This document shows, in pieces, positions 1 through 20,163 of a stretch of 64,000 nt of DNA (the first letter of the stretch is position 1; each line of letters begins with the position of its first letter). The stretch is taken from assembly GCA_963733455.1 (NCBI GenBank), contig CAVTDE010000010.1, positions 9,024-73,023 on the forward strand. The letters are read 5' to 3'. A model generated the notes under the pieces. That model made no database searches. It saw only the letters and a list, made by a program, of their open reading frames with translations, and was not told the origin of the DNA. Position numbers and translations under genes: made by a program. Source of the stretch: an uncultured Bacteroidales bacterium (GTDB lineage Bacteria > Bacteroidota > Bacteroidia > Bacteroidales > VadinHA17).

Positions 1-283
1 CTTTGTATTGCAATGCTTCTTCTTTTAGTTTTTCAAATACTGTTTCAAACGAATTATTTAAATCTAAATACTGTTTGGCATTTTCTGTTAATGAAAATAT
101 GATATTCTCGTCATTGAAATATTGAAATGTTTTTATAAAAAGTTGTTTACTTAATAATGCTTGGTACTGGTTTAATAAGGCTGGATAATAATTCCAAAAA
201 AGCAATTGACTTATAACAACACTTTCAAGTGTTTGATCTGTATCAATTATAATTATTTGTCGATTTTGAATATCAACGGTCAT
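1..283 (-). CDS. hypothetical protein, N-terminal 94 codons only (gene runs off the left edge); last visible gene of the PNP/ParB-like operon
   Basis: Hand translation of the reverse strand from ATG (283-281) gives an uninterrupted frame, MTVDIQNRQIIIIDTDQTLESVVISQLLFWNYYPALLNQYQALLSKQLF..., down to position 1. The start lies 1 nt after the TAA (287-285) of the upstream ORF. It is absent from the supplied track, presumably because no stop falls in the window. No domain recognised. Confidence 0.5.
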   Translation of the reverse strand, partial: MTVDIQNRQIIIIDTDQTLESVVISQLLFWNYYPALLNQYQALLSKQLFIKTFQYFNDENIIFSLTENAKQYLDLNNSFETVFEKLKEEALQYK

Positions 284-284
284 C

Positions 285-1690
285 TTAGTTTCTTTTAAAT
301 TTACTAGGTAATTCGTCCTTAGTCTTCTTTGCCTCATACAATAAATGTTCAATCTCATTAGCACGAGCTTGAATATCCCGACAAGTTTTCATTGCTTCAG
401 AAATCCTTTCATGTTCAATATTTGAGACAATCATATTATCGTGGTTCAATTTATCAAAAGCTTGATTTAATAATTCAATTGGTGTATCTCGTTCTTTCTT
501 CTGTCCCCATATTTCATAAGCTTTTCTTACATGATGAATAATTTCACTAGCATTTATATTGCTCCAAATGATATCTTTAGTTTTTTCTTCAATTTGGTCC
601 CCATTTTCACTAAATGTGTCTTTTAGTGGTATTTCAAAACCAATCTTATTTAATTCAAATAATTCCTTCTTAGCTCTGGGGTTTGATAACAACTTCGGAA
701 GTTCGCGCATTATAAGGTGAGCTTTTTTATCAATCCCTTTTATTTCTCTTTGTCTAATAATTCTAAAAGCTATATTTTCAATTTTCCCAATCTCATCTTC
801 CTGGATTCCCAAACTAATTCTTTGTTTGTCGTCTTTTATTTTTTTAAATACAATATTATAGTAATCAAGAAAAGCTTGCCACCTTCCTTCAGGATCACTC
901 TTTCCTTCAGAAATGGTATTATAATGTCCGGGTCTTTTTAAAAATCCCAGATACCTATCAATACATTCCAGGGGTTTAAGATAATTATCCTCAATGTTTT
1001 TTAATTCTTTTTTAAAATCACTTTTACTTAAAAACGCATAATTTGGATCATCAAGTAGTTGTTCTTCGAGTGTCATTCCTAATTCTAGTTTTCTTCTTAT
1101 TGACAAAGCTTTATCAAAATTATAATATTCGGCCTTACCAGTTCTTTGTAACTGACACCTATTCTCAACTTTCTCAATTTCTATATTTGTAGGTAAGGGT
1201 TCTTTATCGAGAGGTCCTGGTAGAATTACTACCTCCAAATACTTATATTTTTCGTCCCCAGGAACAATTCTAATAACTTTTCCATTACCATCTTCCTTCT
1301 GTTTCCATTAATTAAAAAACCATCTGCAGTAATGATCGCTTCGTCAAGTTGTTTATTCTTTCTAATGTCATTGATTAATTCTTCTGTGGGCTCTTTGTCC
1401 TTCAATTCCAAAAATCTTTTAATAATAGATTGACCAAAATCCGTTACTTCGTCAAGACTTCCTTTATTTCTTTCATATGTTAAAATATCTGAAGCTATTC
1501 TACCATTATCCTTTCGAAATTTTAATAATTCTATAGGGACCTTATATTTATCTCTTATTCTATTGGTAACTATATCATCCCTAAATGGAATAGGCTTGTT
1601 ATTTGAAATTAGCATTTTATGCAAGTTAATTTCATTAACAAATTCATTAATTATAACCCTACACTGATTTTTGTAATCCTTTGTGCTCAT
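285..1690 (-). pseudogene. ParB/Srx-fold (ParB N-terminal domain-like) protein, about 470 aa if repaired; split into track ORFs 1229..1690 and 285..1238 by a 1-nt frame disruption
   Basis: The N-terminal ORF has ParB-box-like motifs: VPIELLKFRKDNGRI and ITADGFLINGNRRKMVMEKL (the DGxxR/GxRR arginine motif). Both reading frames are open between 1229 and 1307. Joining them near 1260-1264 gives ...NRRKMVMEKLLELF/PGDEKYKYLEVVILPGPLD, a natural continuation. The C-terminal roughly 300 aa look all-helical with no domain I recognise. Confidence 0.6.
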
Positions 1691-1692
1691 AA

Positions 1693-2469
1693 CTAAATAA
1701 TTTTATATTTACTTAAGACTTCAAAAGCAAAAGCACTTGCATTTTTTGCAGCTATTATTTGATAGCCTTTCTTATCAGATTGACTTTTGTTTGACAATAA
1801 ATCTGAAATCCCTCTGACTATCAGGAACTGCAATCCTTCATTTGCTTGACATGCAGCATAAAAGCCAGAGCCTTCCATTTCAACTGCAACTGAATCATTA
1901 TAATGACTTAGAATAAGTTGGTATAATTTATTTCTTCTTGACGTTATCAGTTTCTCACCCGAAGCAATAGGCTTAACAATGACTTTTGGATTATTCCCAA
2001 CTTTATTATCAATAATTCTTTTTTTCCAATCATCTTTTCTAGCTTCGGCTTTAGCTCTATTTAATATTGAGTATGATGACTTCCCTATTTCTGGTCTTGT
2101 AATAAATCCATTTTTTGCTATTTTACCAAATTCATAGCCATACGCCTTCTCAACAGCAACGACATCACCCAATTCCAAATCTTTAATTCCTCCAGCAATA
2201 CCGACAAATATGATTATCTGTGGCTCAAAAAATTGGATAGCACGTTCGACTTCCATTCCGCATGTGAAATTTCCGGGTCCGATTTCTGCAATTCCAATAT
2301 TCCACTTATGATAAAATCCATTTAAAAGGCCTTTTTCATAGACATTACCTCTACTATTACACACTTCTTCAATATCCCTCAAATGTCCTCTTACAGCCAT
2401 ATATTCAATAGGTATGGCTGTTAAAATTACTGCACAAGGTATTGAAGTTGTTTTTTGATTTAAGGGCAT
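1693..2469 (-). CDS. PNP_UDP_1 / MTA-SAH-nucleosidase-fold (phosphorylase superfamily) protein, stand-alone 258 aa
   Basis: Family motifs appear in the right order: N-terminal beta-strand plus Glu (AVILTAIPIEY), FVGIAGGI, VEMEGSGF (EME motif) and VRGISD (catalytic Asp motif). The stop lies 2 nt before the start of the ParB-like gene. Much more AT-rich than the rest of the window. Confidence 0.75.
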   Translation of the reverse strand: MPLNQKTTSIPCAVILTAIPIEYMAVRGHLRDIEEVCNSRGNVYEKGLLNGFYHKWNIGIAEIGPGNFTCGMEVERAIQFFEPQIIIFVGIAGGIKDLELGDVVAVEKAYGYEFGKIAKNGFITRPEIGKSSYSILNRAKAEARKDDWKKRIIDNKVGNNPKVIVKPIASGEKLITSRRNKLYQLILSHYNDSVAVEMEGSGFYAACQANEGLQFLIVRGISDLLSNKSQSDKKGYQIIAAKNASAFAFEVLSKYKII

Positions 2470-3548
2470 TCAAAGAAATTAATTAGGATATCTTCCAATG
2501 AGTACAAACATTCTATAAATCAGCAATTGAAGTTTTTATTATTTCAAATATATTCATTATTTGACATATTTCGGTAAGTAGGACTGTATACTATTGGCTC
2601 GTTTGATTTTGCAAATGTACTGGCTAGTGGGAGGGGCAAAAGCAAATGTGCCAATAATAATCTAGAATTTTGAATTTTAATATTTTTGTTCGAGGGCAAA
2701 GTCCCAGTAGGATGTACAGAGTTTTTATGTAACGATAAGACTTTATTAGAGGCAGGAATTAGTCTTATTATCACCAGTAGAAAAGCTGTCTAGGTATTAA
2801 TCGGCTTGCCAATAACGGTTGGCGATATGTGTTGTTGCCAGCAGCTTCGGGAGGCGGGTGTTTTTTGCAGGCCTGATAGAAAGCAGAAATTTGTCGTGTC
2901 AGCAATGGTGTTCTTATCGTGCAAAAAACATGACGCCTCGAAGCGAGGGCGGGCCAACCACATGATACTGCTAAATAATCTAAGTTTTCTTTTGGCCGCC
3001 TGGCAATAACATATACCGACTTGTTAGGGCGGCGTTGATAGCTCGGGCAGCTCGGGCAGGCACTTGCAGATCGCACTCATGAGCCGGTTCTGTATATTTT
3101 TTCCCCTACAAAACCGCGAATGCTATATGCAGGTGCCAGTGGGCGCAGGCCGCGGGTGCCCTTTTCTTTGTTTTCTGTCAGTCCGAAATAAACCAATATC
3201 ATAGGCTAGATTACAATAATCATAAAAAAATAAGGGCAGACAATGCGTCCTTAACTAATTATAAATCATCATCAGGTCCCTTTACTTTTGCCAGGTTTTA
3301 TACTTTATCCACTTGAGTTCAGGAGCATAATCTCCATTACTCCGCTTCTCCTGAAACCCCCATAAATTCTTTGCCGGATTATAAGTATTGTTATAACACA
3401 GTCCCGTCAGTCACAAAAGCGACATCCTTCCCCTCCATGTATTTCGCCACCGGTATTTTCGCCTGCCTGACTTTCAATCTATAAAATCAATACAAGTTAG
3501 CAATACCCTGGAAAATGGATAGCAAAAATCCAATAAAATTGTAAATAG

Positions 3549-3989
3549 CTATTTTACTTTTGTCACCACGATCCTGGCCTTATAATCCCCTCTTTGTGGC
3601 GGATGGTTAAAGGATGGGTATGGAGCCAGATCGATAAGGGTGTATTTGTATCCGTCAATGGTGATCCCGTTCGGGAACCTTAAATGCGTGTTCAGGTTGA
3701 AGTATACCGGCTCCCCGGCTGCTTTCAGATATCTGAACTTCACTTCGGCATTCCCTTCCCAGAAGCAATATACTCCGGTCGGACAGCGTGAATCGCCAAC
3801 AACTGAATCGAAACAGATATAAAAATGATCGTTGGGTTCGTAAAGACAACTTCCAAATGACAGATCAACAGTATCGTTTAAAACCAGAGTGCCTGAATTT
3901 TCCGGATCAGGTATAAATATTTTATCCTGCCTCTCGCCACAGGCGAAGATAAACAGGGTCACCATTGTGAATAATATTATCTTTTTCAT
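3549..3989 (-). CDS. hypothetical lipoprotein
   Basis: Internal ATG at 3989 gives MKKIILFTMVTLFIFACGERQ, a signal peptide with a lipobox Cys. The longer track ORF to 4040 is probably an over-extension. No domain recognised. Confidence 0.55.
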   Translation of the reverse strand: MKKIILFTMVTLFIFACGERQDKIFIPDPENSGTLVLNDTVDLSFGSCLYEPNDHFYICFDSVVGDSRCPTGVYCFWEGNAEVKFRYLKAAGEPVYFNLNTHLRFPNGITIDGYKYTLIDLAPYPSFNHPPQRGDYKARIVVTKVK

Positions 3990-4175
3990 ATGTTTCGGTA
4001 ATAGGTTTTTCTTTACTAATTGCAGGTTTAAATACCACAAAAATTATTCCATAAATTTTATCCTGCTGATAATAAATCCAAATAAAGAAAATATTTATAG
4101 TTTATTTACAATAATGTAAGGGCTAAAGGATGAGATTCTTCGGTTCGCTACTGATGAGCATATAGCCCTGATATT

Positions 4176-4290
4176 AAGCTCCTTCAGAGCTTACAATCAG
4201 AGGAGATTTCTACCCCGGTTTCACCGGGGGTTATTCACATTTGTCTCTTTCAGAGACAGTTATCGGGACAAAGACCTCTTTCAGAGGTAG
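4176..4290. repeat. Rep-E copy 1: cluster of CTCTTTCAGAG-type hairpins
   Basis: Contains agctccttcagagct, ccccggtttcaccgggg, gttattcacatttgtctctttcagagac and acctctttcagaggt. Related copies lie at 11000-11045 and 43134-43232. Confidence 0.7.
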
Positions 4291-4364
4291 GTGATAAAAC
4301 AACTGTCACTTTACATGATCGAGCTTGTCATTATGTCAGGAGTGCAAAAAATTTTGAGTTGACC

Positions 4365-4570
4365 CTCAGGATGACAGTCTGCCAGGTGGAGTGGGAGTAA
4401 GAAGCGGCGATTCGCACCGGGATGCCCTGCATTGTCAAAATGCTGTTTGCGAATCGCCGCTTCTTCCCAAAACCACCACAATTGCGGTGTCATCCCGAAT
4501 CCTGCGGTAGCGGGATGAGGGATCCCTTAATGCAGAGATGAATACTGTAAATATTTCTAAAGTAATTACC
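4365..4570 (+). repeat. Rep-B copy 1: roughly 200-bp long-hairpin element with GGATGACA/TGTCATCC terminal inverted repeats
   Basis: By eye about 90 percent identical over about 200 bp to 43678-43880. Internal arms gaagaagcggcgattcgca / tgcgaatcgccgcttcttc. Ends in cgggatgagggatccc. Confidence 0.8.
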
Positions 4571-4646
4571 GAACGAATGCTATTCCCTTAACCATAGTAC
4601 AAAGCAGTAATTATTATACTATTTTAGTATATTAATATAAAAAACG

Positions 4647-4654
4647 TATATTTG
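4647..4654 (+). promoter_or_regulatory. candidate Bacteroidota -7 promoter box (TATATTTG matches TAnnTTTG) for the TetR/ABC operon
   Basis: Exact match to the TAnnTTTG consensus, 22 nt upstream of the ATG at 4676. It overlaps the TTG at 4652 used by the ORF track, which favours 4676 as the true start. Confidence 0.3.
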
Positions 4655-4675
4655 TCCCGGATTTATAAGCTATTT

Positions 4676-5260
4676 ATGGAAGCTTTTGTAAACAACAAAA
4701 AATACAGGGCGATTCTTGATTCATCCCGCAAACTATTCTGGAAACATGGCATCAGGAGAGTCTCCGTCGAAGAGATCTGCAGGGAAGCAAAAACGAGCAA
4801 AATGACTTTCTACAGGTTCTTTCCCAATAAGACAGAGCTTGCCAAGGCTGTCCTGGAGCGGTTCTATGAGGAAAGCATGACGAACTTCAGAAAGATTATA
4901 CGGGAGGATACTCCTGCCCCGGTGAAAATGCAGAAAATGATCCGGATGAAGCTTGAAGGAACCTATGATATCAGCAATGAGTTTATCCAGGATTTTTTAA
5001 TTAATAAGAACCTCGGCCTGACATCGTATTTCGAAGAAAAGCTGAAGGATATATGGGCGGAGGGTATAAGGGAATTCAAACTTGGACAGGAGGAGGGATG
5101 GATCAGAAAGGATCTAAATGTTGAGTTCCTGTTCTGGTTCAGCCGGAAGATAATCCCGGTACTGGATGATAAGGAGCTTTTGAAGCTTTTCAAATCACCT
5201 CATGAAATGATCCGGGAAGTGGCAAATCTTATCGTTTATGGCATCGCACCGGTGCATTAG
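4676..5260 (+). CDS. TetR/AcrR family transcriptional regulator
   Basis: N-terminal HTH signature RVSVEEICREAKTSKMTFYRFFPNKTELA. About 195 aa, helical C-terminal domain. First gene of the exporter cluster. Confidence 0.85.
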   Translation: MEAFVNNKKYRAILDSSRKLFWKHGIRRVSVEEICREAKTSKMTFYRFFPNKTELAKAVLERFYEESMTNFRKIIREDTPAPVKMQKMIRMKLEGTYDISNEFIQDFLINKNLGLTSYFEEKLKDIWAEGIREFKLGQEEGWIRKDLNVEFLFWFSRKIIPVLDDKELLKLFKSPHEMIREVANLIVYGIAPVH

Positions 5261-5263
5261 ACT

Positions 5264-6406
5264 ATGAACAGGGCGCTTTATATAATATTTATATTGTTTC
5301 TTTTCGCTTTGCCGGAGACCACTCCCGCACAGGACTCTCTTAATATAAAAGGCCAGGTCTCAGCATGGTTGCTGTATCACTCCGATAGTGACCTGCCTGT
5401 TTATGCGGGAGCCCGTTACATCCCCCAGCTGAATTACAGCCTGCCTTTCAGGAATGATCGTATGCTGGATTTTGAAGCATCGGTAAACATTAACGGAAGC
5501 GCCGGTTTTCATCCTTTTGACTCCCTCCGTTATAACGGGCAGATAAAACCCTACAGGTTATGGGCGCGCTATTCAACAAAGCAATTTGAGATCCGGGCAG
5601 GTTTGCAGAAGATCAACTTCGGCTCAGCGTCACTGCTCAGGCCGCTTATGTGGTTCGACCAGGTTGATCCGCGCGATCCACTTAAGCTTACTGACGGGGT
5701 CTGGGGTCTCCTGGGCAGATATTACTTCCTTAATAATGCAAATATCTGGCTCTGGGGACTTTTTGGAAATAAGGATCCAAGAGGGTGGGAGCCTGCAGCT
5801 ACCAACATAAGTTTCCCGGAAGCTGGCGGGAGGATCCAGCTGCCGGTTCCCAGGGGTGAAGTTGCAGTTTCCTATCATCACAGGACTGCCGATACAAGGA
5901 ACATGGGTGATCCGGTTACTCATTACAGTGAGGTCCCTGAAAACAGATTTGGTTTTGATATGAAACTGGACCTTGTGGTGGGGTTCTGGATCGAAGGTTC
6001 GTGGGTAAATAAGGGTAAAGACCTCGGATTATTTTCGAATCAGGAGATACTTAATGCCGGTGTGGATTACACTTTTAGCATAGGAAACGGGCTTTATGTG
6101 ATCTATGAGCAGTTACTGGCTGCCAGTGATGAAAAGCCGTTCAGATTTCAAAACACTTCCTCATTTTCCCTGTTTTCCCTTTCCTATCCGATTGGACTGG
6201 TTGACAATCTGAGCACAATAGTCTATTATGACTGGAAGAATAATAAAAGCTATAATTTCGTGAACTGGCAAAAGCAATTTAACAATATATCATTGTATCT
6301 CATCGGATTCTGGAACCCTGTAATTTACAACATCCCTGCGCAGGGTAGCGGACAAAACCTTTTTGCCGGTAAGGGTGTTCAGATAATGTTTGTTTTGAAT
6401 CATTAA
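5264..6406 (+). CDS. hypothetical outer-membrane (beta-barrel-like) protein with signal peptide
   Basis: Signal peptide MNRALYIIFILFLFALPETTPAQ. Alternating aromatic/Gly-rich beta-strand-like composition with a C-terminal aromatic-rich end. Sits between TetR and the ABC genes. The fold assignment is inference only. Confidence 0.45.
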   Translation: MNRALYIIFILFLFALPETTPAQDSLNIKGQVSAWLLYHSDSDLPVYAGARYIPQLNYSLPFRNDRMLDFEASVNINGSAGFHPFDSLRYNGQIKPYRLWARYSTKQFEIRAGLQKINFGSASLLRPLMWFDQVDPRDPLKLTDGVWGLLGRYYFLNNANIWLWGLFGNKDPRGWEPAATNISFPEAGGRIQLPVPRGEVAVSYHHRTADTRNMGDPVTHYSEVPENRFGFDMKLDLVVGFWIEGSWVNKGKDLGLFSNQEILNAGVDYTFSIGNGLYVIYEQLLAASDEKPFRFQNTSSFSLFSLSYPIGLVDNLSTIVYYDWKNNKSYNFVNWQKQFNNISLYLIGFWNPVIYNIPAQGSGQNLFAGKGVQIMFVLNH

Positions 6407-6416
6407 ATTAATTCAA

Positions 6417-7124
6417 ATGGAAAATTCTTCAATTGTTAAGATTGAAAGGCTTATTAAACGGTTCCCTGTAGGAAAATCTGAATTTACGGCGCTTAAAGAT
6501 ATAAGCGCCAGTTTTGGAACGGGTGAGTTTGCAGGTCTCGTCGGTCCGAGCGGATCGGGGAAAACGACATTGCTTAATATAATGGGTTCCCTTGATACTC
6601 CATCAGAAGGAGAGGTAACTGTTCTTGGCAAGTCAGTTTCAAAATTGAGTCCCAGGGAATCGGCAATACTCAGGAACCGGCATATCGGTTTCATCTTCCA
6701 GACCTTTAACCTTTTGCCGGTTTACACTGTTTATGAAAATGTAGAATTTGCCCTTTTATTGCAAAAAATGTCTGCTTCGGAGAGGAGAAAAGCGGTAATG
6801 GCCGCTCTTGAATGGGTCGGGCTGACAGAAAAGGTGAAATCGCGCCCTTCAATGTTATCGGGAGGTGAATGTCAGCGTGTTGCAATTGCCAGATCAATGG
6901 TAAAAAAGCCTGAAATTGTACTGGCTGACGAACCTACGGCAAACCTCGACTCCGCAAATTCAAATAATATCTTGCAGACAATGAAGAAACTGAACCGGGA
7001 ACTAAGGACGACATTTATTTTCGCCACTCACGACGAGAAGGTCATGAAATATCTGAACCGTATAATCTCACTTGAAGACGGGAAAATTGTAAAGGATATG
7101 ATTGTCACAGATTCTAAAAACTAA
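6417..7124 (+). CDS. ABC transporter ATP-binding protein (LolD/MacB-type)
   Basis: Walker A GPSGSGKTT, signature LSGGECQRVAIARS, Walker B IVLADEPT. Confidence 0.9.
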   Translation: MENSSIVKIERLIKRFPVGKSEFTALKDISASFGTGEFAGLVGPSGSGKTTLLNIMGSLDTPSEGEVTVLGKSVSKLSPRESAILRNRHIGFIFQTFNLLPVYTVYENVEFALLLQKMSASERRKAVMAALEWVGLTEKVKSRPSMLSGGECQRVAIARSMVKKPEIVLADEPTANLDSANSNNILQTMKKLNRELRTTFIFATHDEKVMKYLNRIISLEDGKIVKDMIVTDSKN

Positions 7125-7128
7125 GATC

Positions 7129-8295
7129 ATGCTTGCACTGAAATTGGCATTTAAAAACCTGATGGGTGCAGGTTTACGAACCTGGCTGAATGTCTCGGTC
7201 CTTTCGTTTGCATTTGTTATTATAGTATTCTATAACGGCCTTATCGATGGCTGGAACAGGCAGGCCAGGCTCGACACCAGTGAATGGGAGACAGGTTACG
7301 GACAATACTGGCACCCGGCATACGACAGATACGACGTGTTTACAATTCAGGATTCACACCAGCCTTTATCCAACGAAATAGCTTCGGAGGTTAAAGATAA
7401 ACTGCTTGTACCGGTATTGATCGCGCAGGCAACAGCTTTTCCCCAGGGACGCATGCAGGCTGTTATCCTTAAAGGCGTCGATCCGGGACAAACTATTCTT
7501 AAACTGCCGACCGGTAAACTGTTACCTTCTGATGAAGTTGATTATGGCATAATCGGGAAAAGGATGGCCGAATCATCCAAACTTAAGGTTGGGGACAGGT
7601 TGCTTATCAGGTGGCGTGATAAAAACGGCACTTTTGATGCCCGTGAGATACAGATTGCCTCAATATTCAGGTGTGATGTTCCTGCCGTGGATAAGGGTCA
7701 GATCTATCTTCGACTGGATGTGCTTCAGAAAATGATGGGTATGGGTAACGAAGCGACACTTCTGGTGGCAGGAAAAGGTCAGAGTCAGAAGAATTTTAAA
7801 GACTGGGAATTCAGGGATCAGAAATTCCTTCTTGCCGATATGGATAAGATCATTCAGGCTAAAAAAGCCGGCGGATCAATTATGGAAGGCCTCTTACTTA
7901 TAATAGCCCTGATTGCAATATTTGACACACAGGTATTGTCGATCTTCCGGCGGCAAAAGGAAATAGGCACCTATATCGCCCTTGGAATGACAAGGTCGCA
8001 GGTGGTAGGAATTTTTACCGTCGAAGGCGGCGCCCACAGCATTCTGGCTACACTTATGGGGGCGGCATATGGTATCCCCTTATTTCTATTGCTCGGGAAA
8101 GCAGGCATCCCGATGAAAGCCGCGCAATCGACCGATCTTGCAGTTGCGGAAAAGATATTTCCATATTATAGTTTAGGCCTGATAATTATTACGATTATCC
8201 TTGTCGTCATAACATCAACGATAGTCAGCTACCTGCCTGCCCGCAAAATTTCGAAAATGAAACCAACAGATGCACTGAAAGGGAAACTGGTATGA
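7129..8295 (+). CDS. ABC transporter permease, FtsX/MacB-like
   Basis: ATG at 7129, just after the ATPase stop. N-terminal TM, large periplasmic domain, C-terminal 3-TM FtsX-type block ending ...YLPARKISKMKPTDALKG. Confidence 0.85.
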   Translation: MLALKLAFKNLMGAGLRTWLNVSVLSFAFVIIVFYNGLIDGWNRQARLDTSEWETGYGQYWHPAYDRYDVFTIQDSHQPLSNEIASEVKDKLLVPVLIAQATAFPQGRMQAVILKGVDPGQTILKLPTGKLLPSDEVDYGIIGKRMAESSKLKVGDRLLIRWRDKNGTFDAREIQIASIFRCDVPAVDKGQIYLRLDVLQKMMGMGNEATLLVAGKGQSQKNFKDWEFRDQKFLLADMDKIIQAKKAGGSIMEGLLLIIALIAIFDTQVLSIFRRQKEIGTYIALGMTRSQVVGIFTVEGGAHSILATLMGAAYGIPLFLLLGKAGIPMKAAQSTDLAVAEKIFPYYSLGLIIITIILVVITSTIVSYLPARKISKMKPTDALKGKLV

Positions 8296-9566
8296 TAAAA
8301 TTTTTATTTAAAGGGATAATAAGGGATAAAAGCCGGAGTCTGCTTCCCGTAATTGTGGTGGCTCTGGGTGTTTTCCTGACCGTTTTTATGAGCGGCTTTC
8401 TGAAAGGTGTTTTCAGTGATGTAACGGATCTTAATGCAAAATTCACGACAGGACATGTAAAAATCCTTACCCGTGCTTATTCTGAAAATGCTGATCAGCA
8501 GCCTAACGATCTGGCCTTGCTGGGAGTAAAGGAACTTATCCGGAAACTGCAGACTGATTACCCGGATATGGAATGGGTAGAACGGATCCACACGGGAGGT
8601 TTGCTTGATGTCCCTGATTCACTGGGTGAAACACGGGGTCAGGGTCAGGCAGTCGGCACCGGAATCGATCTGCTTTCTCCCGGTTCCGGAGAAGTGGAAA
8701 GGATGAATATCAGGAAGTCCCTTGTGAAAGGCTCAATGCCATCACAGAGCGGGGAAGCCCTGATAAGCGATAATTTTGCCGGACGGTTCGGCGTATCTCC
8801 GGGTGACAAAATAACCTTGTTTGGTTCCACGATGAACGGAAGCATGATGTTCCACACATTTGTTGTCAGCGGTACACTAAGTTTTGGCAGCACAATCCTT
8901 GATCGCGGAGCAATATTCATGGACATTAGGGATGCACAACAGGCTCTTGACATGGATGATGCTGCAAGTGAGATACTTGGCTATTTCAGGGACGGGAAAT
9001 ACGACGATCTGAAAGCTCAGCAGGTGGAAACCTCTTTCAATTCAAAATACAGTAATGTCAATGATGAATTTTCACCAGTGATGTCGCGGCTTGTTGAGCA
9101 GGAGGGTCTGGGAGATTATCTGAAACTTGCCGAAAGCTCCAGCTCGATAATGAGTTTTATTTTCATAATCGCAATGTCGATCGTGTTATGGAATACGGGT
9201 TTGCTTGGTGGTTTACGAAGGTACAGCGAGTTTGGGGTAAGGCTTGCCCTTGGGGAAGAGAAGAAACATATTTATATAACCACAATTTATGAAGCGCTCC
9301 TCATCGGAGTAATCGGTACCGTTATCGGAACGGCCATGGGCCTGGGGGCGGCATACTACCTTCAAAATCACGGACTTGACATGTCGGCCGTTACGAAAAA
9401 TGTCGGGATGATGTTCCCTACAGTTTACAGAGCTGAGGTTACTCCTTCATTGTTCTATATCGGCTTCTTCCCGGGATTGATAGCAACTGCATTGGGAAGC
9501 TCCCTTGCGGGATTTGCAATTTATAAGAGAAGAACATCACAACTCTTTCATGAACTTGAAGTGTAG
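8292..9566 (+). CDS. ABC transporter permease, FtsX/MacB-like (second paralogue)
   Basis: Same architecture as 7129..8295. A 4-nt ATGA start/stop overlap indicates translational coupling. Confidence 0.85.
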   Translation: MIKFLFKGIIRDKSRSLLPVIVVALGVFLTVFMSGFLKGVFSDVTDLNAKFTTGHVKILTRAYSENADQQPNDLALLGVKELIRKLQTDYPDMEWVERIHTGGLLDVPDSLGETRGQGQAVGTGIDLLSPGSGEVERMNIRKSLVKGSMPSQSGEALISDNFAGRFGVSPGDKITLFGSTMNGSMMFHTFVVSGTLSFGSTILDRGAIFMDIRDAQQALDMDDAASEILGYFRDGKYDDLKAQQVETSFNSKYSNVNDEFSPVMSRLVEQEGLGDYLKLAESSSSIMSFIFIIAMSIVLWNTGLLGGLRRYSEFGVRLALGEEKKHIYITTIYEALLIGVIGTVIGTAMGLGAAYYLQNHGLDMSAVTKNVGMMFPTVYRAEVTPSLFYIGFFPGLIATALGSSLAGFAIYKRRTSQLFHELEV

Positions 9567-9581
9567 AAACGGAAGGCTCGA

Positions 9582-9690
9582 CCTCACCCCCTAAATCCCC
9601 CTCTCCCGGGGGGAGAAAGGGATTTAAGAAACGGGAGGCACACCTACACCCCCTAAATCCCCCTCTCCCGGGGTGAGAGGGGGACTTTTA
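9582..9690 (+). repeat. two tandem G/C-clamped hairpin units (ccctaaatccccctctcccgggg.gaga..ggg); the second is followed by a T-run and could act as a terminator
   Basis: Unit 1 about 9582-9640, unit 2 about 9643-9685, then ttttaaaaa. Related ccccctctc...gagaggggg motifs at 10822-10840 and 29900-29930. Confidence 0.6.
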
Positions 9691-9712
9691 AAAATGTTTT
9701 AAAAATTGTAAA

Positions 9713-10447
9713 ATGAAAAAGATGTTAGTTCTGGTTGTATCAACCATATTTTTAATGAGTTTCACAGGTCCTGACGCAAATGAGATACTCAATAAGGTTG
9801 ACAAAAACATGTCATCGAAGAACAGGGTTTTTGAATCGGAGATGATAATCCATGGCCGCCGTACAAGCCGTACGATTACTTCGAAATCATATTCGGCGGG
9901 TACAAAACAGTCATTCACGGAGTACCTTTCCCCTGCCAGGGAACAGGGCACTAAAATGCTTAAGCTTGAGAATCAGCTGTGGATTTATTCACCTTCAACC
10001 GACCGCATCATTCAGATCTCAGGTCATATGCTCCGGCAATCTGTAATGGGCTCTGACCTGTCATATGAAGATATGATGGATGACCGGAAGCTTACTGATA
10101 TTTATTCTGCCGAAGTAGCCGGTACTGAGACTATTGACGGGAGAAATACTTATGTACTCAGCCTTAAGGCAAAAGTTGATGATGCTGCTTATTTCTCTCA
10201 GAAGATATGGGTAGATACCGAGCGCTTTGTTCCATTGAAGCAGGAGATGTTTGCCAAAAGCGGTCAGCTTCTCAAACGGACAATACTTACCAACGTTAAG
10301 CAGGTTCAGGGCCGGTGGTTTCCGATGACCGTCAATTATAAAGATGTACTTAAAGAAGGGGATGGGACTGATTTCAGAATTACAAGTGTGAAATTTGACC
10401 AGGTAATTCCGGATTATATCTTTACAAAGGCAGCTTTGAAGAAATAA
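9713..10447 (+). CDS. LolA-like outer membrane lipoprotein-sorting protein
   Basis: Signal peptide, about 240 aa, beta-rich. Typical position after paired FtsX permeases. Family call comes from recollection of LolA_like proteins in such clusters. Confidence 0.65.
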   Translation: MKKMLVLVVSTIFLMSFTGPDANEILNKVDKNMSSKNRVFESEMIIHGRRTSRTITSKSYSAGTKQSFTEYLSPAREQGTKMLKLENQLWIYSPSTDRIIQISGHMLRQSVMGSDLSYEDMMDDRKLTDIYSAEVAGTETIDGRNTYVLSLKAKVDDAAYFSQKIWVDTERFVPLKQEMFAKSGQLLKRTILTNVKQVQGRWFPMTVNYKDVLKEGDGTDFRITSVKFDQVIPDYIFTKAALKK

Positions 10448-10534
10448 TTAAGGTCAGACACTCCTCCAGGGGCATAGCCGTCAACCTAAGAGTTATTTTC
10501 GTAAAAAGAGATCTGCTATTCTATAATAAAATTG

Positions 10535-10684
10535 GAGTTGTTGAAAAAGTCATTTTTAACCGCAAAGCACTCTAAGAAGCGCAAAGAACGCAAAGCTAAA
10601 TCACATAAATTCATCTCTTTGCGAACTTTGCGTAAATTCTTTGCGTCCTCTGCGGTTAATGGATTTGGACTTTTTCAACAACCC
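10535..10684 (+). repeat. Rep-A copy 1: roughly 150-bp imperfect palindrome built from CGCAAAG / CTTTGCG motifs (MITE-like)
   Basis: gttgttgaaaaagtc...aaccgcaaag..gcgcaaag..cgcaaag | ctttgcg..ctttgcg..ctttgcg..ctgcggtt...gactttttcaacaac. Four copies in the window, all intergenic. Confidence 0.85.
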
Positions 10685-10865
10685 CAAAGTTATTTTCTTG
10701 CTACTTAAGACATTGAGCCTAGGGGCAAAAGCAATCTGTTCAACTTTTTCCCTAGTTGAATAAGCCTCTATATTATATGCATTTACTTAAATATCTATCG
10801 TTAGGTTGACGGCTATGGATTGAGGGGGAGAGGCCGCACATTTAATATGTCTTTTATTTAATTAA

Positions 10866-10933
10866 AATACTGCTTTTATTTGAAAGAAATACTGCTTTTA
10901 ATACTGCTTTTATTTGAAAGAAATACTGCTTTT
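10866..10933 (+). repeat. direct tandem repeat, 2 x 34 bp (aatactgcttttatttgaaagaaatactgctttt)
   Basis: Read directly. Units at 10866-10899 and 10900-10933 are identical, and each contains atactgctttt twice. Confidence 0.9.
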
Positions 10934-10999
10934 AATACGTATTTCTTTTTTGTAATCAATTTTTCAATGAATTGACAGGCAGGCATTGATTTAAAGGTT

Positions 11000-11045
11000 T
11001 GGCGTCTTCGGGGGTTATTCAAATTTGTCTCTTTCAGAGACGGCT
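11000..11045. repeat. Rep-E copy 2 (partial)
   Basis: ggcgtcttcgggggttattcaaatttgtctctttcagagacgg matches the core of 4176-4290. Confidence 0.65.
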
Positions 11046-11172
11046 AAAGGCAGTAGACGAAAATTGAAATCCGTTAAAGAGACTTAAAATTTCCCATAAA
11101 TCACACAGATTTAGCGGGATTTTAAATACTAAAACCAAACTCAAAGCCCCCCATTTGGGGGGTTGGGGGGTT

Positions 11173-11236
11173 GAGGGGTGGCCGGGACTATTGACTTTTA
11201 GACGTTTACAAATTTGCTTTCCAGGCCAGGGTGGTT
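11173..11236 (+). repeat. Rep-F copy 1 (GAGGGGTGGCC ... GGCC.GGGTGGTT)
   Basis: gaggggtggccgggactattgacttttagacgtttacaaatttgctttccaggccagggtggtt is nearly identical to 29396-29458. Confidence 0.8.
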
Positions 11237-11384
11237 GCCAGCAGAAAAAAGTTAGTCAATGGCTTTCTCACCCACAATTGTTTTTGTTAAGCTGAAAACA
11301 AAAGGAGGAGCATGAGTGTTGTAATATATTGAAACGTTGTCGGCTTGCGATCCATGTTGTTCTTTAACTCTCACTTGATATAAG

Positions 11385-14300
11385 ATGAAAACAGGCTGTC
11401 GGATTAAATTGCTGGTTCTGCTCTTTTTTTCATCACTCTGGTTTTTGCAATTAAATGCCCAGCAACCAGTTACAGGAATAGTTACTGACGATAAAAACTC
11501 TCCCCTTCCGGGAGTCTCTGTTCAGGTTAAAAACACACTCAGGGGAACCTTTTCAGGAGCAGATGGTGAATATTCAATTGTAGCCTCACCAAATGATACC
11601 CTTATATTCTCGATGGTCGGCATGGCCCAGCAAATAATACCTGTTGGCAACAGGACCAAAATCGACGTTAAGCTTCTCATCGAAGCATCACTCCTTAACG
11701 AAGTTGTTGTCGTCGGATATGGGTCACAAAAGTACAGGGATCTTACTGCTCCCATTGTTACGATGAAAGGAGAGGACCTGAATAAGCAGATTACCTCAAA
11801 TCCTGTTCAGGCCCTTCAGGGAAAGATCTCGGGAGTTCAGGTAATTAACAGCGGCATCCCGGGTAGCGGGTCGCTTGTCAAGATCCGGGGAGTGGGTTCC
11901 ATCGGGGATTATGCCAATCCTCTCTATGTTGTCGACGGTGTTTTTGTCGATAATATTAATTTCCTTAGTTCAGGTGATATTGAGGACCTTACGGTTCTTA
12001 AAGATGCTTCCTCCGCAGCAATTTACGGTGTGAGGGCTGCTAACGGGGTCATACTTATCACAACGAAAAAAGGTACGACCGAAAAGCCTGTTATAAACTA
12101 CGACGGATATTTCGGATACCAGCTTCCGGTAAATATCCTGCCAATGGCTTCCCGCGATCAATATGTCACCCTTATAAATGAGGCGAACATGAATTCTCCG
12201 GGCTATGTCCCGAAGTCACCTTCCGATTACCCTGCTTCCACTGACTGGTATCAGCAGCTTGTCAGACCGGCGAGTACAACCAACCACAGCCTTGACATAT
12301 CGGGTTCGAATAATAAAACTTCATATTCCCTGGGTGGAAGCTATTTTTATCAGCAGGGGATCATGGACATAAAGAATGATTACAACCGATTCAATTTCAG
12401 GGGCAGGCTCGATCAGACCGTAAATAAAGTTCTGAAGATCGGGCTGAACAGCCTTTTATCAAAGTACGGAAAGACAATTCCTAACGACGGTGCATTCTTC
12501 GGAGCATATGTTAACCCCCCGGTTTACCCGGTTTACGATCCCGGGAATGCTGATGCCTATCCTGTAAAGTTCACATCACCGCAGGAGTTCGGGTTCGGTA
12601 ACCAGTATGGCAATCCGGTTGCGGCAGCTTATTATAATGACAATGTTGAAAAAGGGATAGAACTGGTTTTCAGCAGTTATGCTGAATTTAACATCATAAG
12701 CAACAAACTTGTTTATAAGGTATCATACAACACCGATCTGAATTACTATAATTCACGCAATTATACTCCTCAGTTCAATGTCGGAGGATCACAGGGGGTC
12801 CTGAAATCAAATCTCTCAAAAACTTCGGGAAATTCTTCAAAGCAGATAATTGATAACCTCCTGACCTATACTGGTAAATCGGGGAACAACAATATCTCGG
12901 TAATGCTTGGGCAGTCGACCCGGCTTGAGCGTTCCGGGTTTCTGACAGGTTCTGCCGTTGATGTTCCGGGATATGACGAACAGTCCAAATACATAGTTAC
13001 CGGCTCGTTCAGCGACCGAAATGCAACAGATGGAGCCGCAGCCTACAACGGGTTGTCATTTTTTACCCGCGGAACCTACAACTACAATGACAAATACCTT
13101 TTGACATTTACGTTCAGGGCAGATGCAAGCTCGAAATACCAGCAAAAATGGGGCTATTTCCCATCTGTAGGATTTGGCTGGATCCTGTCGGATGAAACAT
13201 TTATGAAGAAATTGAAAAACTTCAATTTTCTCAAGCTGAGGGCAAGCTGGGGCCTTTTGGGCAACGATAACGTTCCGGCCAATTCAGCGGTAACCCTCGG
13301 TCAGACCGGCGCCGGTGCCTCAGCCGTATTTGACGACAGGCTGGTAACAGGAGTCGGAGCCCAGACAGTAGTTCAGAATTACCTCAAGTGGGAGGTTGTG
13401 AATGAATATGATATCGGAACCGATTTTACCTTATTCGGGAACAAGTTGTCCGGAAGCCTTGATTATTATCACCGTCTTACAAGCAATGTTGTATTTTTTG
13501 CCCCGATTGCCACAGGAGGAGGTGTTGCAGAGCTTCTTGGCAATAATGGGAGCGTTCTGAATAACGGTATAGAACTTAACATCACCTTGAGAAAAAAGAT
13601 CTCAGATCTTTTTACATACAATCTCGGTGTGAATGTCACGACAATACATAACAAAGTAACAAAGCTCCAGGGCCGCGATTACATACCCGGTGCACTTGTC
13701 AGGGGTAATTATGCAACCAGGACTCAGGTAGGGCATCCGATAGGATCTTTTTATGGTTATGAAATCGATCACGTGTACCAGAGTGCGGCTGATGCCTTAC
13801 TGGACCCTGTAAGTCAAGCCGTTAAAAGTGCAGGCTTCTTCAGGTATAAAGATCAGAACGGGGATAATGTCATAAATGAAAGTGATAAGGTTTTTTTGGG
13901 TAGTGCGGTCCCGTGGCTTATTGGAGGGGTCGAATTTGGTTTTAGTTACAGAAAGATTGATTTAAGTCTGTCGCTGCAGGGCCAGTACGGAAATAAAATT
14001 CTCAACGCAAAGAGGATGAACAGGGATGTATTTGTTGATGGAAATTACGACAGGGATTTTTATAATAACAGGTGGACTCCCGATAAAAAATCATCAAAAT
14101 ACCCTTCGGCTGAAGCTTATAATTATTCATTCATCCAGCAGCCAAATGACTTTTTTGTTGAGAATGGCGCTTACATACGCATTCAGAATTTGCAGGTCGG
14201 ATATAATATAGATGGCATAAGCTTTATCCCCAACCTGAGGATTTACATTTCCGCACAGAGGCCGTATACCTTTTTTACCTATAAAGGATTTACTCCCGAG

Positions 14301-14390
14301 GTGGGAGGATCACCGATCAGCAGTGGCATTGACAATTCAGTCTATCCGTTGCAGGCGATCTATTCTCTTGGAGTTAAAATGAGCTTTTAG
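11385..14390 (+). CDS. susC: SusC/RagA family TonB-dependent outer membrane receptor
   Basis: 1001 aa. Signal peptide, carboxypeptidase-regulatory-like N-domain (VTGIVTDDKNSPLPGVSVQVKNT), plug (VVVVGYGSQK) and a C-terminal barrel ending in F. Followed at 18 nt by SusD. No STN-type N-terminal extension visible. Confidence 0.9.
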   Translation: MKTGCRIKLLVLLFFSSLWFLQLNAQQPVTGIVTDDKNSPLPGVSVQVKNTLRGTFSGADGEYSIVASPNDTLIFSMVGMAQQIIPVGNRTKIDVKLLIEASLLNEVVVVGYGSQKYRDLTAPIVTMKGEDLNKQITSNPVQALQGKISGVQVINSGIPGSGSLVKIRGVGSIGDYANPLYVVDGVFVDNINFLSSGDIEDLTVLKDASSAAIYGVRAANGVILITTKKGTTEKPVINYDGYFGYQLPVNILPMASRDQYVTLINEANMNSPGYVPKSPSDYPASTDWYQQLVRPASTTNHSLDISGSNNKTSYSLGGSYFYQQGIMDIKNDYNRFNFRGRLDQTVNKVLKIGLNSLLSKYGKTIPNDGAFFGAYVNPPVYPVYDPGNADAYPVKFTSPQEFGFGNQYGNPVAAAYYNDNVEKGIELVFSSYAEFNIISNKLVYKVSYNTDLNYYNSRNYTPQFNVGGSQGVLKSNLSKTSGNSSKQIIDNLLTYTGKSGNNNISVMLGQSTRLERSGFLTGSAVDVPGYDEQSKYIVTGSFSDRNATDGAAAYNGLSFFTRGTYNYNDKYLLTFTFRADASSKYQQKWGYFPSVGFGWILSDETFMKKLKNFNFLKLRASWGLLGNDNVPANSAVTLGQTGAGASAVFDDRLVTGVGAQTVVQNYLKWEVVNEYDIGTDFTLFGNKLSGSLDYYHRLTSNVVFFAPIATGGGVAELLGNNGSVLNNGIELNITLRKKISDLFTYNLGVNVTTIHNKVTKLQGRDYIPGALVRGNYATRTQVGHPIGSFYGYEIDHVYQSAADALLDPVSQAVKSAGFFRYKDQNGDNVINESDKVFLGSAVPWLIGGVEFGFSYRKIDLSLSLQGQYGNKILNAKRMNRDVFVDGNYDRDFYNNRWTPDKKSSKYPSAEAYNYSFIQQPNDFFVENGAYIRIQNLQVGYNIDGISFIPNLRIYISAQRPYTFFTYKGFTPEVGGSPISSGIDNSVYPLQAIYSLGVKMSF

Positions 14391-14408
14391 CAATAAACAG
14401 TTCAGTCT

Positions 14409-15899
14409 ATGAAGAACGCAAGAAATATATTAATTTGTTTAATAGGGGTTTTGGCTTTAACGCACTGTAAGAAATTTCTGGATATACGTCCTGAAGCCAC
14501 AGTTCCCTCGGCAGGTATGGATTATACCAAATCCGAAAATATATTTCTCCCCATAAGTGCAGCCTATGCAAAATTACGTGATTACGGCGCTCATGTTTTC
14601 CCATATATCGGGGCATTTGAAATTACATCTGATAATGCGGATAAGGGAAGTACCCCGGAGGATAATCCTCCGATGGCTGAGCTGGATAATTTCACATTCC
14701 AGTCGACCAGCAGTCTTATGAATGATCTGTGGACAGGTTACTTTGACATAGTCAGCGGCGCTAATTATGCCATTCACCAGATGCCCCTGTTTGAGGATGC
14801 ATTACCTAACAGCGGTGACAAACTATATGCCCGTCAATGTCAGGCTGAAGTCAAGACCATCAGAGCATATGCTTATTTCAACCTCACAAGGCTATTCGGC
14901 AGAGTCCCGATTATTGACACGATCCTGACCTCACAGCAACTTTCTTCCGTTCACCAGGCAACAACGCAGGAGCTTTATACCTTTATCGAAAAAGACCTGG
15001 GAGAGGCAATTCCGGTTCTGCCCGGGTCGTACACCAAAGAGTGGGCCGGCAGGATCAACAGGTATACAGCGATGGCCCTGAAAGCAAAGGTACACCTGTA
15101 TGCGCAGGAATGGGATTCAGTTGCAAGCTTAACCGGCCGGATAATTGCCTCGGGCAGGTTCGGACTCCTTCCGACTTTCAGGGATGAATTCAGTATTGAC
15201 GGAGAAAACAGCCGTGAATCGCTATTTGAAATACAGAGCTCAACACTTGGAAAAACAACCGGGGATCAGACCTACCTTGAGTATGCCTATGTTCAGGGTC
15301 CCAGGGGAAATAGTCCGGCAGGAATGCAGGGCTGGGGATTCTGCACTCCAAGCCAGAACCTTATTGACTTCTTTAATTCACGGGGCGAATTGATCAGGCC
15401 TGCGACAACCTTACTTTACCGGGGAACCAAAACTCCTGAAGGAGACAGTATTAAAACCATCTGTTCAAACCCGGTTTATAATGGTAAAGTATATACTCCA
15501 TTGATCTTTAATAAATGGAACTTCAATGGTTACGGATTCGACTACAATATACGCATCCTTAGATACTCCGACGTTCTCCTGATGTATGCAGAAGCTAAAC
15601 TCAGGGGTGCGACCGTACTGGATGCCGCGGGTCTGACCGCTGACCAGGCAATTAACCTGGTCAGAAGCCGGGCAGGACTGACTGATCTTACAGGTGCAAC
15701 TCTCCAGCAGGTCCTGGATGAGCGAAGGGCGGAGCTGGCTCTGGAGGAAGACAGGTTCATGGACCTTGTACGGACAGGGCAGGCAGCAACAGCGCTTGGG
15801 GTGAAAGGATTCAGGTCTCAGAAAAATGAACTCTTCCCTATACCTGCTGCACAAATGCAACTCAATACGAATTTAACACAGAATCAGGGTTATAACTGA
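14409..15899 (+). CDS. susD: SusD/RagB family nutrient-binding outer membrane lipoprotein
   Basis: Lipoprotein signal (LALTHC), about 500 aa, TPR-like helical composition. C-terminal ERRxELxxEExRFxDL(V)R motif (ERRAELALEEDRFMDLVR). Confidence 0.9.
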   Translation: MKNARNILICLIGVLALTHCKKFLDIRPEATVPSAGMDYTKSENIFLPISAAYAKLRDYGAHVFPYIGAFEITSDNADKGSTPEDNPPMAELDNFTFQSTSSLMNDLWTGYFDIVSGANYAIHQMPLFEDALPNSGDKLYARQCQAEVKTIRAYAYFNLTRLFGRVPIIDTILTSQQLSSVHQATTQELYTFIEKDLGEAIPVLPGSYTKEWAGRINRYTAMALKAKVHLYAQEWDSVASLTGRIIASGRFGLLPTFRDEFSIDGENSRESLFEIQSSTLGKTTGDQTYLEYAYVQGPRGNSPAGMQGWGFCTPSQNLIDFFNSRGELIRPATTLLYRGTKTPEGDSIKTICSNPVYNGKVYTPLIFNKWNFNGYGFDYNIRILRYSDVLLMYAEAKLRGATVLDAAGLTADQAINLVRSRAGLTDLTGATLQQVLDERRAELALEEDRFMDLVRTGQAATALGVKGFRSQKNELFPIPAAQMQLNTNLTQNQGYN

Positions 15900-15931
15900 T
15901 AGAAGAAAAGGAATTTCTTTAATTAATTAAA

Positions 15932-16819: not shown

Positions 16820-16871
16820 TTAACCTAAGTTGCTGGTTACTGGTTGCTGGTTGGTCAATCGCGATTGGGGA

Positions 16872-17019: not shown

Positions 17020-17052
17020 TCTGTAAGTTTTTTTATTTATAACTTCACTGAA

Positions 17053-18699: not shown

Positions 18700-18704
18700 G
18701 GCAT

Positions 18705-20081: not shown

Positions 20082-20163
20082 TAAGAAGTTATAATTGACG
20101 TTGGAGAAATGGACACAGTTTTAACATCGGAATAGGAATAATCTAAATACTGACAATAAATAT

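Follow-up and report, generated by a model that had tools for sequence, protein, structure and literature searches.

What kind of system sets a stand-alone nucleosidase directly beside a ParB-like protein, in an AT-rich block of a Bacteroidales genome? This question is raised by the left-hand end of a 64,000-nucleotide stretch of contig CAVTDE010000010.1 (positions 9,024 to 73,023 of assembly GCA_963733455.1, from an uncultured Bacteroidales bacterium), which we analysed as a whole and refer to as the window. An original prediction, made from the sequence alone, had read the three minus-strand genes at window positions 1-2469 as a possible two-part system, a ParB/Srx-type sensor paired with a nucleotide-depleting nucleosidase, acting in abortive infection. 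Our analysis replaces this pair with a four-gene unit and leads us to suggest that the window probably holds part of a horizontally acquired, restriction-modification (R-M)-like defence module in which a nucleosidase would replace the nuclease.

The open reading frame (ORF) calls place the three genes at 2469->1693, 1690->285 and 283->1, with intergenic spacers of 2 nt between genes 1 and 2 and 1 nt between genes 2 and 3. The coordinates and spacers of the tight transcription unit described earlier are thereby confirmed; gene 2, which had been taken for a single open frame, is instead split in the window by the loss of 1 nt at ~1262. Gene 1 (1693..2469, minus strand) encodes a stand-alone PNP/MTAN-fold nucleosidase of 258 aa, which Pfam and PADLOC matches and its catalytic motifs identify as the predicted effector. 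Gene 2 (285..1690, minus strand) encodes the ParB-like hallmark protein of the module, here called P468, with 468 aa when intact, as judged from the ORFs, a fold model and the related contig described below. Gene 3 (1..283, minus strand) comprises the first 94 codons of a SNF2-family helicase of 624 aa. Genes 1 and 2 plus these 94 codons are thus all that the window shows of the unit.

We retrieved the missing part through the exact 258-aa PNP protein, which led to an ENA contig (L001) with 99.4% identity to the window over 9.7 kb. L001 carries P468 as an intact 468-aa ORF at 10780-12186, followed by the complete gene 3, which starts at ATG 12185 (MTVDIQNRQ...) and encodes 624 aa with SNF2-rel_dom (7.5e-17), ResIII and Helicase_C domains and with GSGKT and DEAH motifs in the translation. 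The earlier description of gene 3 as lacking any recognisable domain therefore holds for the 94 visible codons and fails for the full-length protein. The L001 contig stops 100 nt beyond the SNF2 gene. An identical PNP occurs in three more assemblies, whose gene tables repeat genes 1-3 with an intact 468-aa gene, and the longest of these tables lists a 301-aa D12-class N6-adenine DNA methyltransferase (MethyltransfD12) 18 nt downstream of SNF2 and, after it, one further gene of at least 91 aa. The methyltransferase of the window's own system was read from this gene table alone and not from DNA sequence, and an exact 50-mer from the window edge found no match in the genome-contig collection searched. 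The complete unit is PNP (258 aa) -> P468 (468 aa) -> SNF2 (624 aa) -> Dam-like D12 methyltransferase (301 aa). As had been supposed, the operon is cut by the window edge, with SNF2 truncated at position 1 and the methyltransferase beyond it; extension to the left through L001 and the gene tables brought into view a SNF2 helicase and a DNA methyltransferase, as opposed to the plasmid-partition or conjugation genes that would have spoken against a defence role.

To place this operon among its relatives, we compared 81 loci, consisting of 80 fetched with a P468 family profile plus L001. According to the record titles, these loci represent more than 15 phyla and candidate groups, including Bacteroidota, Ignavibacteriota, Nitrospirota, Omnitrophota, Chloroflexota, Planctomycetota, Verrucomicrobiota, Acidobacteriota, Gemmatimonadota, Latescibacterota, Patescibacteria, Pseudomonadota and Desulfobacterota, among others, and the family is also found in an Asgard archaeon, as a protein of a Helarchaeota metagenome-assembled genome. 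A SNF2 gene (~630 aa) follows P468 in 79 of the 81 loci, and nearly all loci that do not run into a contig end also have a DNA methyltransferase, of the D12 or N6_N4 class. P468, SNF2 and the DNA methyltransferase form the core of the family, to which a fourth component is added in alternative forms. In 60 loci this is a NOV_C/DUF3883 protein of ~318 aa encoded directly after SNF2, a PD-(D/E)xK nuclease whose motif D223..E243-V-K245 is invariant in 55 sequences; a methyltransferase is in view in 56 of these 60, whereas in the other four a contig end cuts the locus or none is seen. In 14 loci, L001 included, there is no NOV_C gene and a PNP gene lies directly before P468, which makes the PNP a minority option (14 of 81 loci). 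Seven loci have neither, at least four of them being cut by a contig end, and not one of the 81 has both. An apparent gap of ~900 nt between SNF2 and the methyltransferase in about nine loci had suggested a non-coding RNA; this candidate was rejected, the gap being a NOV_C gene that overlaps the end of SNF2.

The PNP-bearing loci are monophyletic in a neighbour-joining tree of P468, and the gene order PNP -> P468 -> SNF2 recurs in 13 independent genomes. Their hosts are Chitinophagaceae, Cyclobacteriaceae, Pedobacter, Poritiphilus, Winogradskyella, Bacteroidales and Ignavibacteria. A methyltransferase is in view in 13 of the PNP loci and is an adenine methyltransferase in every one of them; L001 is the locus whose contig ends before it. 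The expectation that the nucleosidase and the ParB-like protein would prove to be conserved neighbours is thus borne out throughout one clade (14 loci) and does not extend to the family as a whole (14/81). Since the coupling of PNP to P468 is one variant of a larger SNF2/methyltransferase family, the original interpretation is supported in part only.

A third form of the module was found among distant matches to the profile, in which P468 proteins of 576-630 aa carry an N-terminal extension of ~160 aa. This extension bears an HNH-type Cys/His/Asn pattern, with a weak Pfam HNH_2 match in 4 of 6 proteins, and three-gene operons of HNH-P468, SNF2 and a D12 methyltransferase, lacking both NOV_C and PNP, occur in three separate lineages. 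These lineages group apart from the PNP clade, and in the third of them (L089) the genes are fragmented. The PNP gene sits directly upstream of P468, the position that the fused HNH domain occupies in these other lineages. The HNH-fused members are found at loci L082-L089 and include proteins P0263, P0264 and P0271; one of them adjoins a HipA/HTH toxin-antitoxin pair. A more distant cousin lies at 4938-11715 of a Lactiplantibacillus plantarum conjugative plasmid (CP096858.1, locus L091), with a ParB-like protein of 400 aa, an 861-aa PLD-SNF2 protein that has an N-terminal PLD nuclease domain, and a MutH-like protein of 246 aa, flanked by vsr and dcm. The ParB-like gene of this plasmid is annotated as a partition protein although it stands in a restriction-like context.

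Two loci depart from the common arrangement: L011 (~9217-12269) has PNP, P468 and D12 genes and no SNF2 gene, and L047 (~5638-9952) has P468, SNF2 and D12 genes with no effector visible before the contig ends. These two may represent decay or a minimal version of the module. The loci share no conserved flanking gene. Viewed qualitatively, the neighbours include scattered AbiEii, SoFic, MADS, Mrr, Cas4, HipA and recombinase genes; in the Agriterribacter locus, a gene with a Mrr_cat domain (type IV restriction) lies directly upstream of the PNP gene (L002:8299-9048). A constant chassis, mutually exclusive effectors of unrelated kinds, patchy spread, the lack of a conserved flank and the presence of defence and mobile genes nearby together make up the signature of an R-M-like defence system. 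In these comparisons, the PNP appears to hold the effector role taken elsewhere by the NOV_C nuclease or the fused HNH domain.

The hallmark of the family is P468 itself, which has more than 1200 homologues of ~467 aa; all those with a source name go under 'hypothetical protein', and among the 120 homologues listed a precomputed Pfam domain is recorded for a single one (PF18763 on P0093). A search of 1.84 billion cluster representatives with the P468 profile, the clusters being defined at 50% identity, returned 1465 clusters at E <= 1e-3 and 649 at E <= 1e-10. Across 22 sequences the invariant residues include R59-K-x-N-G-R-I65, D123-G-F-L-I-N-G-N-R-R-K133 and E173..E176-N-R178..Q180, and the second of these contains the INGNRR motif on which the ParB-like assignment had been based. 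Sequence models gave little further guidance: Pfam scans found no ParBc, DUF262, DUF1524 or DndB match for P468 and only a chance match to DUF7658 (E ~0.06-0.1), PADLOC v2 and NCBIfam gave no match, and a search of the PDB sequences with the P468 profile gave one chance match, a neopullulanase. The Pfam ddrB-ParB model weakly matches 4 of 22 relatives (best E 3.3e-5) and gives none for the window protein.

Structure comparison was more informative. An AlphaFold2 model of P468 (predicted local distance difference test score 87) was searched with Foldseek against the PDB, and the top nine matches were ParB N-domains, including pNOB8 ParB-N (5k5d) and Spo0J (1vz0), with probabilities of 0.87-1.0, E values of 0.01-0.07 and template modelling scores to the target of 0.36-0.46. 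In addition, a tblastn search matched residues 44-266 to a Lactiplantibacillus plasmid gene annotated ParB/RepB/Spo0J, and hhalign supported this relationship at 98.9%, with GNRR of P468 aligned to DGNRR. According to these models, the N-terminal half of P468 has a ParB/Srx-type domain and a following helical region (residues ~44-266), in agreement with the fold first proposed for gene 2. The C-terminal part (~200 residues) is helical and matches nothing. Boxes II (GERRxR) and III (ENLQR) of ParB bind and hydrolyse CTP, and the GNRR and E-N-R..Q motifs of P468 are presumably laid out like these two boxes. A role in ParABS partition was considered and rejected, as the neighbour of P468 is SNF2 and neither the conserved clusters nor the 25 flanking families listed as most frequent include ParA.

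The product of gene 1 matches Pfam PNP_UDP_1 (3.5e-21) and, in PADLOC, the 'Effector, PN-superfamily' model (3e-18) and PDC-M60C (4e-17). It retains the full set of motifs listed for it at the outset, namely PIEY and the catalytic set E22, GIAGG90-94, VEMEG196-200 and RGISD219-223, and E22, VEMEG and RGISD are at least 95% conserved among 67 members of its clade. Solved MTAN structures align weakly to gene 1 (E ~1e-9), with E22, E197-M-E199 and D223 in active-site register. These catalytic residues are common to immune PNPs and MTANs and do not discriminate between the two. The catalytic motifs are intact in all parts of the module.

Gene 1 scores well below the NCBIfam cut-offs for MtnN (NF004079, 69 vs 169 bits; TIGR01704, 31.7 vs 73.8) and for the futalosine hydrolase MqnB (TIGR03664, 52.3 vs 124.7), and its neighbours in the PNP loci are P468, SNF2 and a D12 methyltransferase, which is not a context of methionine or purine salvage or of menaquinone synthesis. 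A housekeeping MtnN/Pfs or MqnB enzyme was rejected on these grounds, and the view that gene 1 lies outside salvage stands. Members of its clade are 56-69% identical and all ~255 aa long. Relatives just outside the clade, at 50-55% identity, are mostly cyanobacterial, many of them longer, and several consist of a PNP fused to EAD1 (PF19955), PF19960, TIR or GUN4. As fusions to EAD1, TIR and GUN4 are conflict-system architectures, these relatives of gene 1 do not look like salvage enzymes. NCBI names the clade members (for example P0129, P0132, P0140, P0144, P0166 and P0181) 5'-methylthioadenosine/S-adenosylhomocysteine (MTA/SAH) nucleosidase, which is probably a systematic mis-annotation, given how far the window's own PNP falls short of the equivalog cut-offs. 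Gene 1 is 28% identical to the N-terminal half of the Cap17 PNP and 22% identical to DtcC. When a hidden Markov model (HMM) of its 120 nearest PNP relatives was scored over the N-terminal half against a partial Cap17 sequence, Cap17 reached 42.5 bits, MTAN 32.9 and DtcC 25.1. A clear assignment of gene 1 to the Cap17 clade of Rousset et al. could not be established.

These observations suggest how the module might work. The methyltransferase would mark host DNA, and P468, acting as a nucleoside triphosphate (NTP)-gated DNA-binding module together with the SNF2 translocase, would inspect DNA and recognise unmodified, foreign molecules. In most family members this recognition would license the nuclease to cut the foreign DNA. 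In the clade represented in the window, the stand-alone nucleosidase in the nuclease's place would be inactive until triggered by the P468/SNF2 complex and would then cleave the N-glycosidic bond of an adenine nucleotide, most likely ATP or dATP as in Cap17 and DtcC, halting replication of the invader while sacrificing the cell. That the module depletes ATP and acts by abortive infection is what we infer by analogy with those effectors. More tentatively, and with appreciably less confidence than we place in the R-M-like nature of the module, the whole may form an unnamed R-M-like immune family with a ParB-like NTP switch and a SNF2 motor, in which unmethylated DNA would bring about depletion of adenine nucleotides and abortive infection or, in a radical version, direct removal of bases from DNA.

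We found neither a description nor a name for this system in the literature searched or in PADLOC v2, which agrees with the initial impression that no named system has this gene combination. The nearest named system is Hma (Payne 2021; Liu 2024), which consists of HmaA (a SNF2 helicase fused to a NOV_C/DUF3883 nickase domain), the methyltransferase HmaB and the DUF499 ATPase HmaC, and in which HmaA alone protects against T4 (PMC11232893). The majority form of the P468 family likewise combines a SNF2 helicase, a NOV_C nuclease and a methyltransferase, some HmaB proteins are of the D12 class, and the family SNF2 gives a weak, partial PADLOC match to HmaA (1.5e-7). In contrast to HmaA, which is a fused protein of ~1150 aa, the P468 family splits the helicase (~630 aa) from the nuclease (~318 aa). 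It has a ParB-like partner in place of the DUF499 ATPase, and for methylation it has a small type-II-like enzyme of the D12 or N6_N4 class, neither HmaB DUF1156 nor HmaC being part of the conserved block. The clade found in the window differs further, having a PNP nucleosidase instead of NOV_C. Membership of Hma was therefore rejected: the 624-aa SNF2 has no nuclease domain, and both the DUF499 of HmaC and the DUF1156 of HmaB are missing.

PNP effectors are known to degrade ATP and dATP in CBASS (Cap17) and Detocs (DtcC), and a PNP variant of DRT8 has a PNP in place of the usual nuclease (doi 10.1101/2023.01.24.525353). Gene 1 shares with Cap17 and DtcC the PNP_UDP_1 fold and the catalytic Asp (RGISD in the window, D472 in Cap17, D353 in DtcC), and the replacement of a nuclease effector by a PNP in DRT8 follows the same evolutionary logic as in the clade described here. 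Unlike those effectors, the window PNP is stand-alone, without a SAVED/TPALS, receiver, NLR or EAD domain, and is coupled to a ParB-like/SNF2/methyltransferase module. Detocs was rejected, since the 258-aa protein is PNP-only, with no receiver domain, and no kinase (DtcA) is encoded in the operon.

The combination of a superfamily 2/SNF2 motor, a nuclease and an N6-adenine or N4/N6 methyltransferase in one operon, with self discrimination presumed to occur via methylation, is reminiscent of type III R-M and class 1 DISARM systems. In type III R-M, however, helicase and nuclease reside in one Res polypeptide bound to Mod, and DISARM requires both DrmA and DrmB (DUF1998); neither system has a ParB-like component, and the Res, Mod, DrmA and DrmB parts are not in the conserved P468 block. 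Type III R-M was rejected on these defining features, and class 1 DISARM because the DrmD-type SNF2 matches are weak and generic and no DrmA/DrmB cluster is found among the conserved neighbours. Finally, GmrSD/BrxU/SspE, DndB and DpdB have in common with P468 a ParB/Srx-type N-terminal domain, a D-G-x-x-R-R-like motif and a defence context linked to DNA modification, and in some P468 family members an HNH domain is fused to the ParB-like protein, as in GmrSD/BrxU/SspE (DUF262 plus DUF1524 HNH). In the P468 family, however, the HNH domain is N-terminal, not C-terminal, P468 is the obligate partner of a SNF2 helicase, and no Dnd, Ssp or Dpd modification genes are found in the conserved four-gene block. 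With no DUF262 or DUF1524 match, membership of the GmrSD/BrxU/SspE group was rejected; the comparison with DUF262 proteins and DndB drawn at the beginning survives as an analogy at the level of fold, no model of either family matching P468.

Several observations weigh against the R-M-like defence reading. The class and position of the methyltransferase vary between loci, and its coupling to the rest of the module may therefore be loose. Many neighbours of the family loci are housekeeping genes, the visible flank in the window is an ABC exporter, and searches of 72,556 plasmids and 50,697 phage records turned up no full-length member of the P468 family. At full length, the HMM of the 120 nearest PNP relatives gives 64 bits for the Vibrio cholerae MTAN and 38 for DtcC, and the substrate could therefore differ from ATP. 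The window's own copy of P468 is frameshifted.

Some of these points would fit other explanations. The PNP could be an accessory SAH/MTA nucleosidase that clears the S-adenosylhomocysteine left by the methyltransferase, with restriction carried out by a ParB-like nickase or not at all. This would account for the complete MTAN catalytic set, the name given by NCBI, the ranking of a real MTAN above DtcC and the presence of an S-adenosylmethionine-dependent methyltransferase in the same operon, and nuclease activity has been reported for some ParB/Srx domains (PMC5512222). We nevertheless consider it unlikely: the protein falls far under both MtnN equivalog cut-offs, 60 sister systems with NOV_C manage without a PNP although a D12 or N6_N4 methyltransferase is seen in 56 of them, the PNP is present exactly where the nuclease is lost, with HNH at the same 5' position in another lineage, and EAD1, TIR and GUN4 are the fusion partners of its nearest relatives from outside the clade. 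A second possibility has the PNP act as a restriction glycosylase, stripping unmethylated adenine or another base from invader DNA that the P468/SNF2 complex presents to it. In the relatives the effector role is held by enzymes that cut DNA (NOV_C, HNH, PLD and MutH-like), the partner is an adenine methyltransferase in 13 of 13 PNP loci where it is in view as well as in the window's own gene tables, and many basic residues are conserved in the PNP clade (K96, K108, K116, R125, R138, R151, K173 and K228). We know of no PNP/MTAN-fold enzyme that acts on polymeric DNA, however, the characterised immune PNPs use free ATP or dATP, and a Pfam scan of the 258-aa protein detected the PNP domain only and no DNA-binding domain; direct attack on DNA is thus very unlikely. 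It is hardly more probable that the module is not immune at all and serves in epigenetic control or chromatin handling, or as an addiction module, its spread reflecting selfish mobility. ParB proteins and SNF2 ATPases do have roles outside defence, and the housekeeping neighbours and the exporter beside the window's operon would be less surprising. Yet essentially every complete locus encodes a nuclease or toxic-type effector, and unrelated folds replace one another in that role. The conserved and the most frequent flanking families listed include no ParA family, the module occurs patchily in more than 15 phyla and also in an Asgard archaeon, and Hma, the nearest named system, has shown anti-phage activity.

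The remaining alternative concerns the window copy alone, which would be a dead remnant, inactive in this strain, if the frameshift in P468 were real. The split gives two ORFs, 1690->1229 (153 aa) and 1238->285 (317 aa), and base-by-base alignment to L001 attributes it to a contraction of CCC to CC at ~1262. The gene is intact, at 468 aa, in the three other assemblies with an identical PNP, and the 317-aa fragment is on record as a called protein (P0001) from a 545-kb contig, all of which speaks for a genuine deletion. Against this, the window and L001 differ by only one further single-base indel, at 4216 (GGGGG to GGGG), so that both are homopolymer contractions, and the first 3.3 kb show no other difference. 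Homopolymer contractions are the usual signature of read or assembly errors, and the frameshift may well be an artefact. Either the assembly is wrong at a homopolymer or a mutation has inactivated the gene, and we regard an inactive copy as doubtful while giving it appreciable weight.

Read in this way, the module belongs to an already-known kind, that of helicase-containing R-M-like systems with swappable effectors. What is new is P468, for which we found no family model, name or paper and which marks the module in more than 1000 sequence clusters, together with the exchange of effectors between unrelated folds (NOV_C, HNH, PLD/MutH-like and PNP) on a constant chassis. If confirmed, the module would add one more defence family and give ParB/Srx NTP switches a defined role beside a DNA motor, and the PNP clade would give direct experimental access to the question of whether discrimination by methylation is able to drive immunity of a metabolic (abortive) kind. 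Cultured carriers include Pedobacter sp. BMA, Mucilaginibacter sp. cycad4 and Poritiphilus flavus R33.

The GC content of the operon is 30.8% over positions 1-2469, compared with 44.8% in the ABC-transporter cluster and 42.4% in the whole window, and the hand counts behind the first report of foreign composition (19 G+C at 301-360 and 25 at 5281-5340) are exact. Between positions 1 and 3322, the window and L001 show zero mismatches, the indel at ~1262 being the sole difference, compared with 51 mismatches across 3323-9700 (6.4 kb, 0.8% divergence). An AT-rich, identical block beside a flank diverged by 0.8% indicates that this segment has recently had a history of its own, through transfer or through recombination between strains. 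The operon is probably horizontally acquired, its foreign origin being indicated by the difference in GC content (31% vs 42%) and the block of identity to L001.

Upstream of the operon, positions 2470..3322 form a non-coding stretch with no credible ORF that is identical in L001 and in which the promoter and the right-hand boundary of the acquired DNA presumably lie. A sigma-70 promoter scan performed no better here than on shuffled sequence, sigma-70 being the wrong model for Bacteroidota. The ORF-free region extends through 2470-3548 (1079 nt) and is followed by repeats at 4171-4570, matching the ~1.1 kb empty stretch and repeat elements noted at first. Positions 1-6000 contain no tRNA and only sub-threshold Rfam matches, none near the gathering score of any family. 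The repeats belong to an intergenic family that is not related to the operon: the copy at 4171-4570 recurs at 43126-43880 and 11009-11041, with 91% identity between 4366-4570 and 43675-43880, shorter pieces at two more sites, and a perfect 18-nt inverted repeat inside the element (4399-4416 / 4448-4465). The copy at 43126-43880 lies ~640 nt from a gene for an IS110-family transposase (DEDD_Tnp_IS110 / Transposase_20; 41188-42486, minus strand), and the repeat may be associated with this insertion sequence. The same transposase is encoded in L001 (522-1820) with 100% protein identity, and the two copies occupy different chromosomal positions in the window assembly and L001, which suggests that the insertion sequence is active in this population. 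Elsewhere, the window encodes a C25 peptidase and an alanyl-tRNA synthetase that is 74% identical to its counterpart in a Bacteroidales metagenome-assembled genome, the closest one found when GTDB species representatives were scanned. Positions 11385-22404 form a polysaccharide-utilisation locus with a SusC-like TonB receptor, SusD, a putative glucoamylase and a GH3 enzyme, which is ordinary for Bacteroidales.

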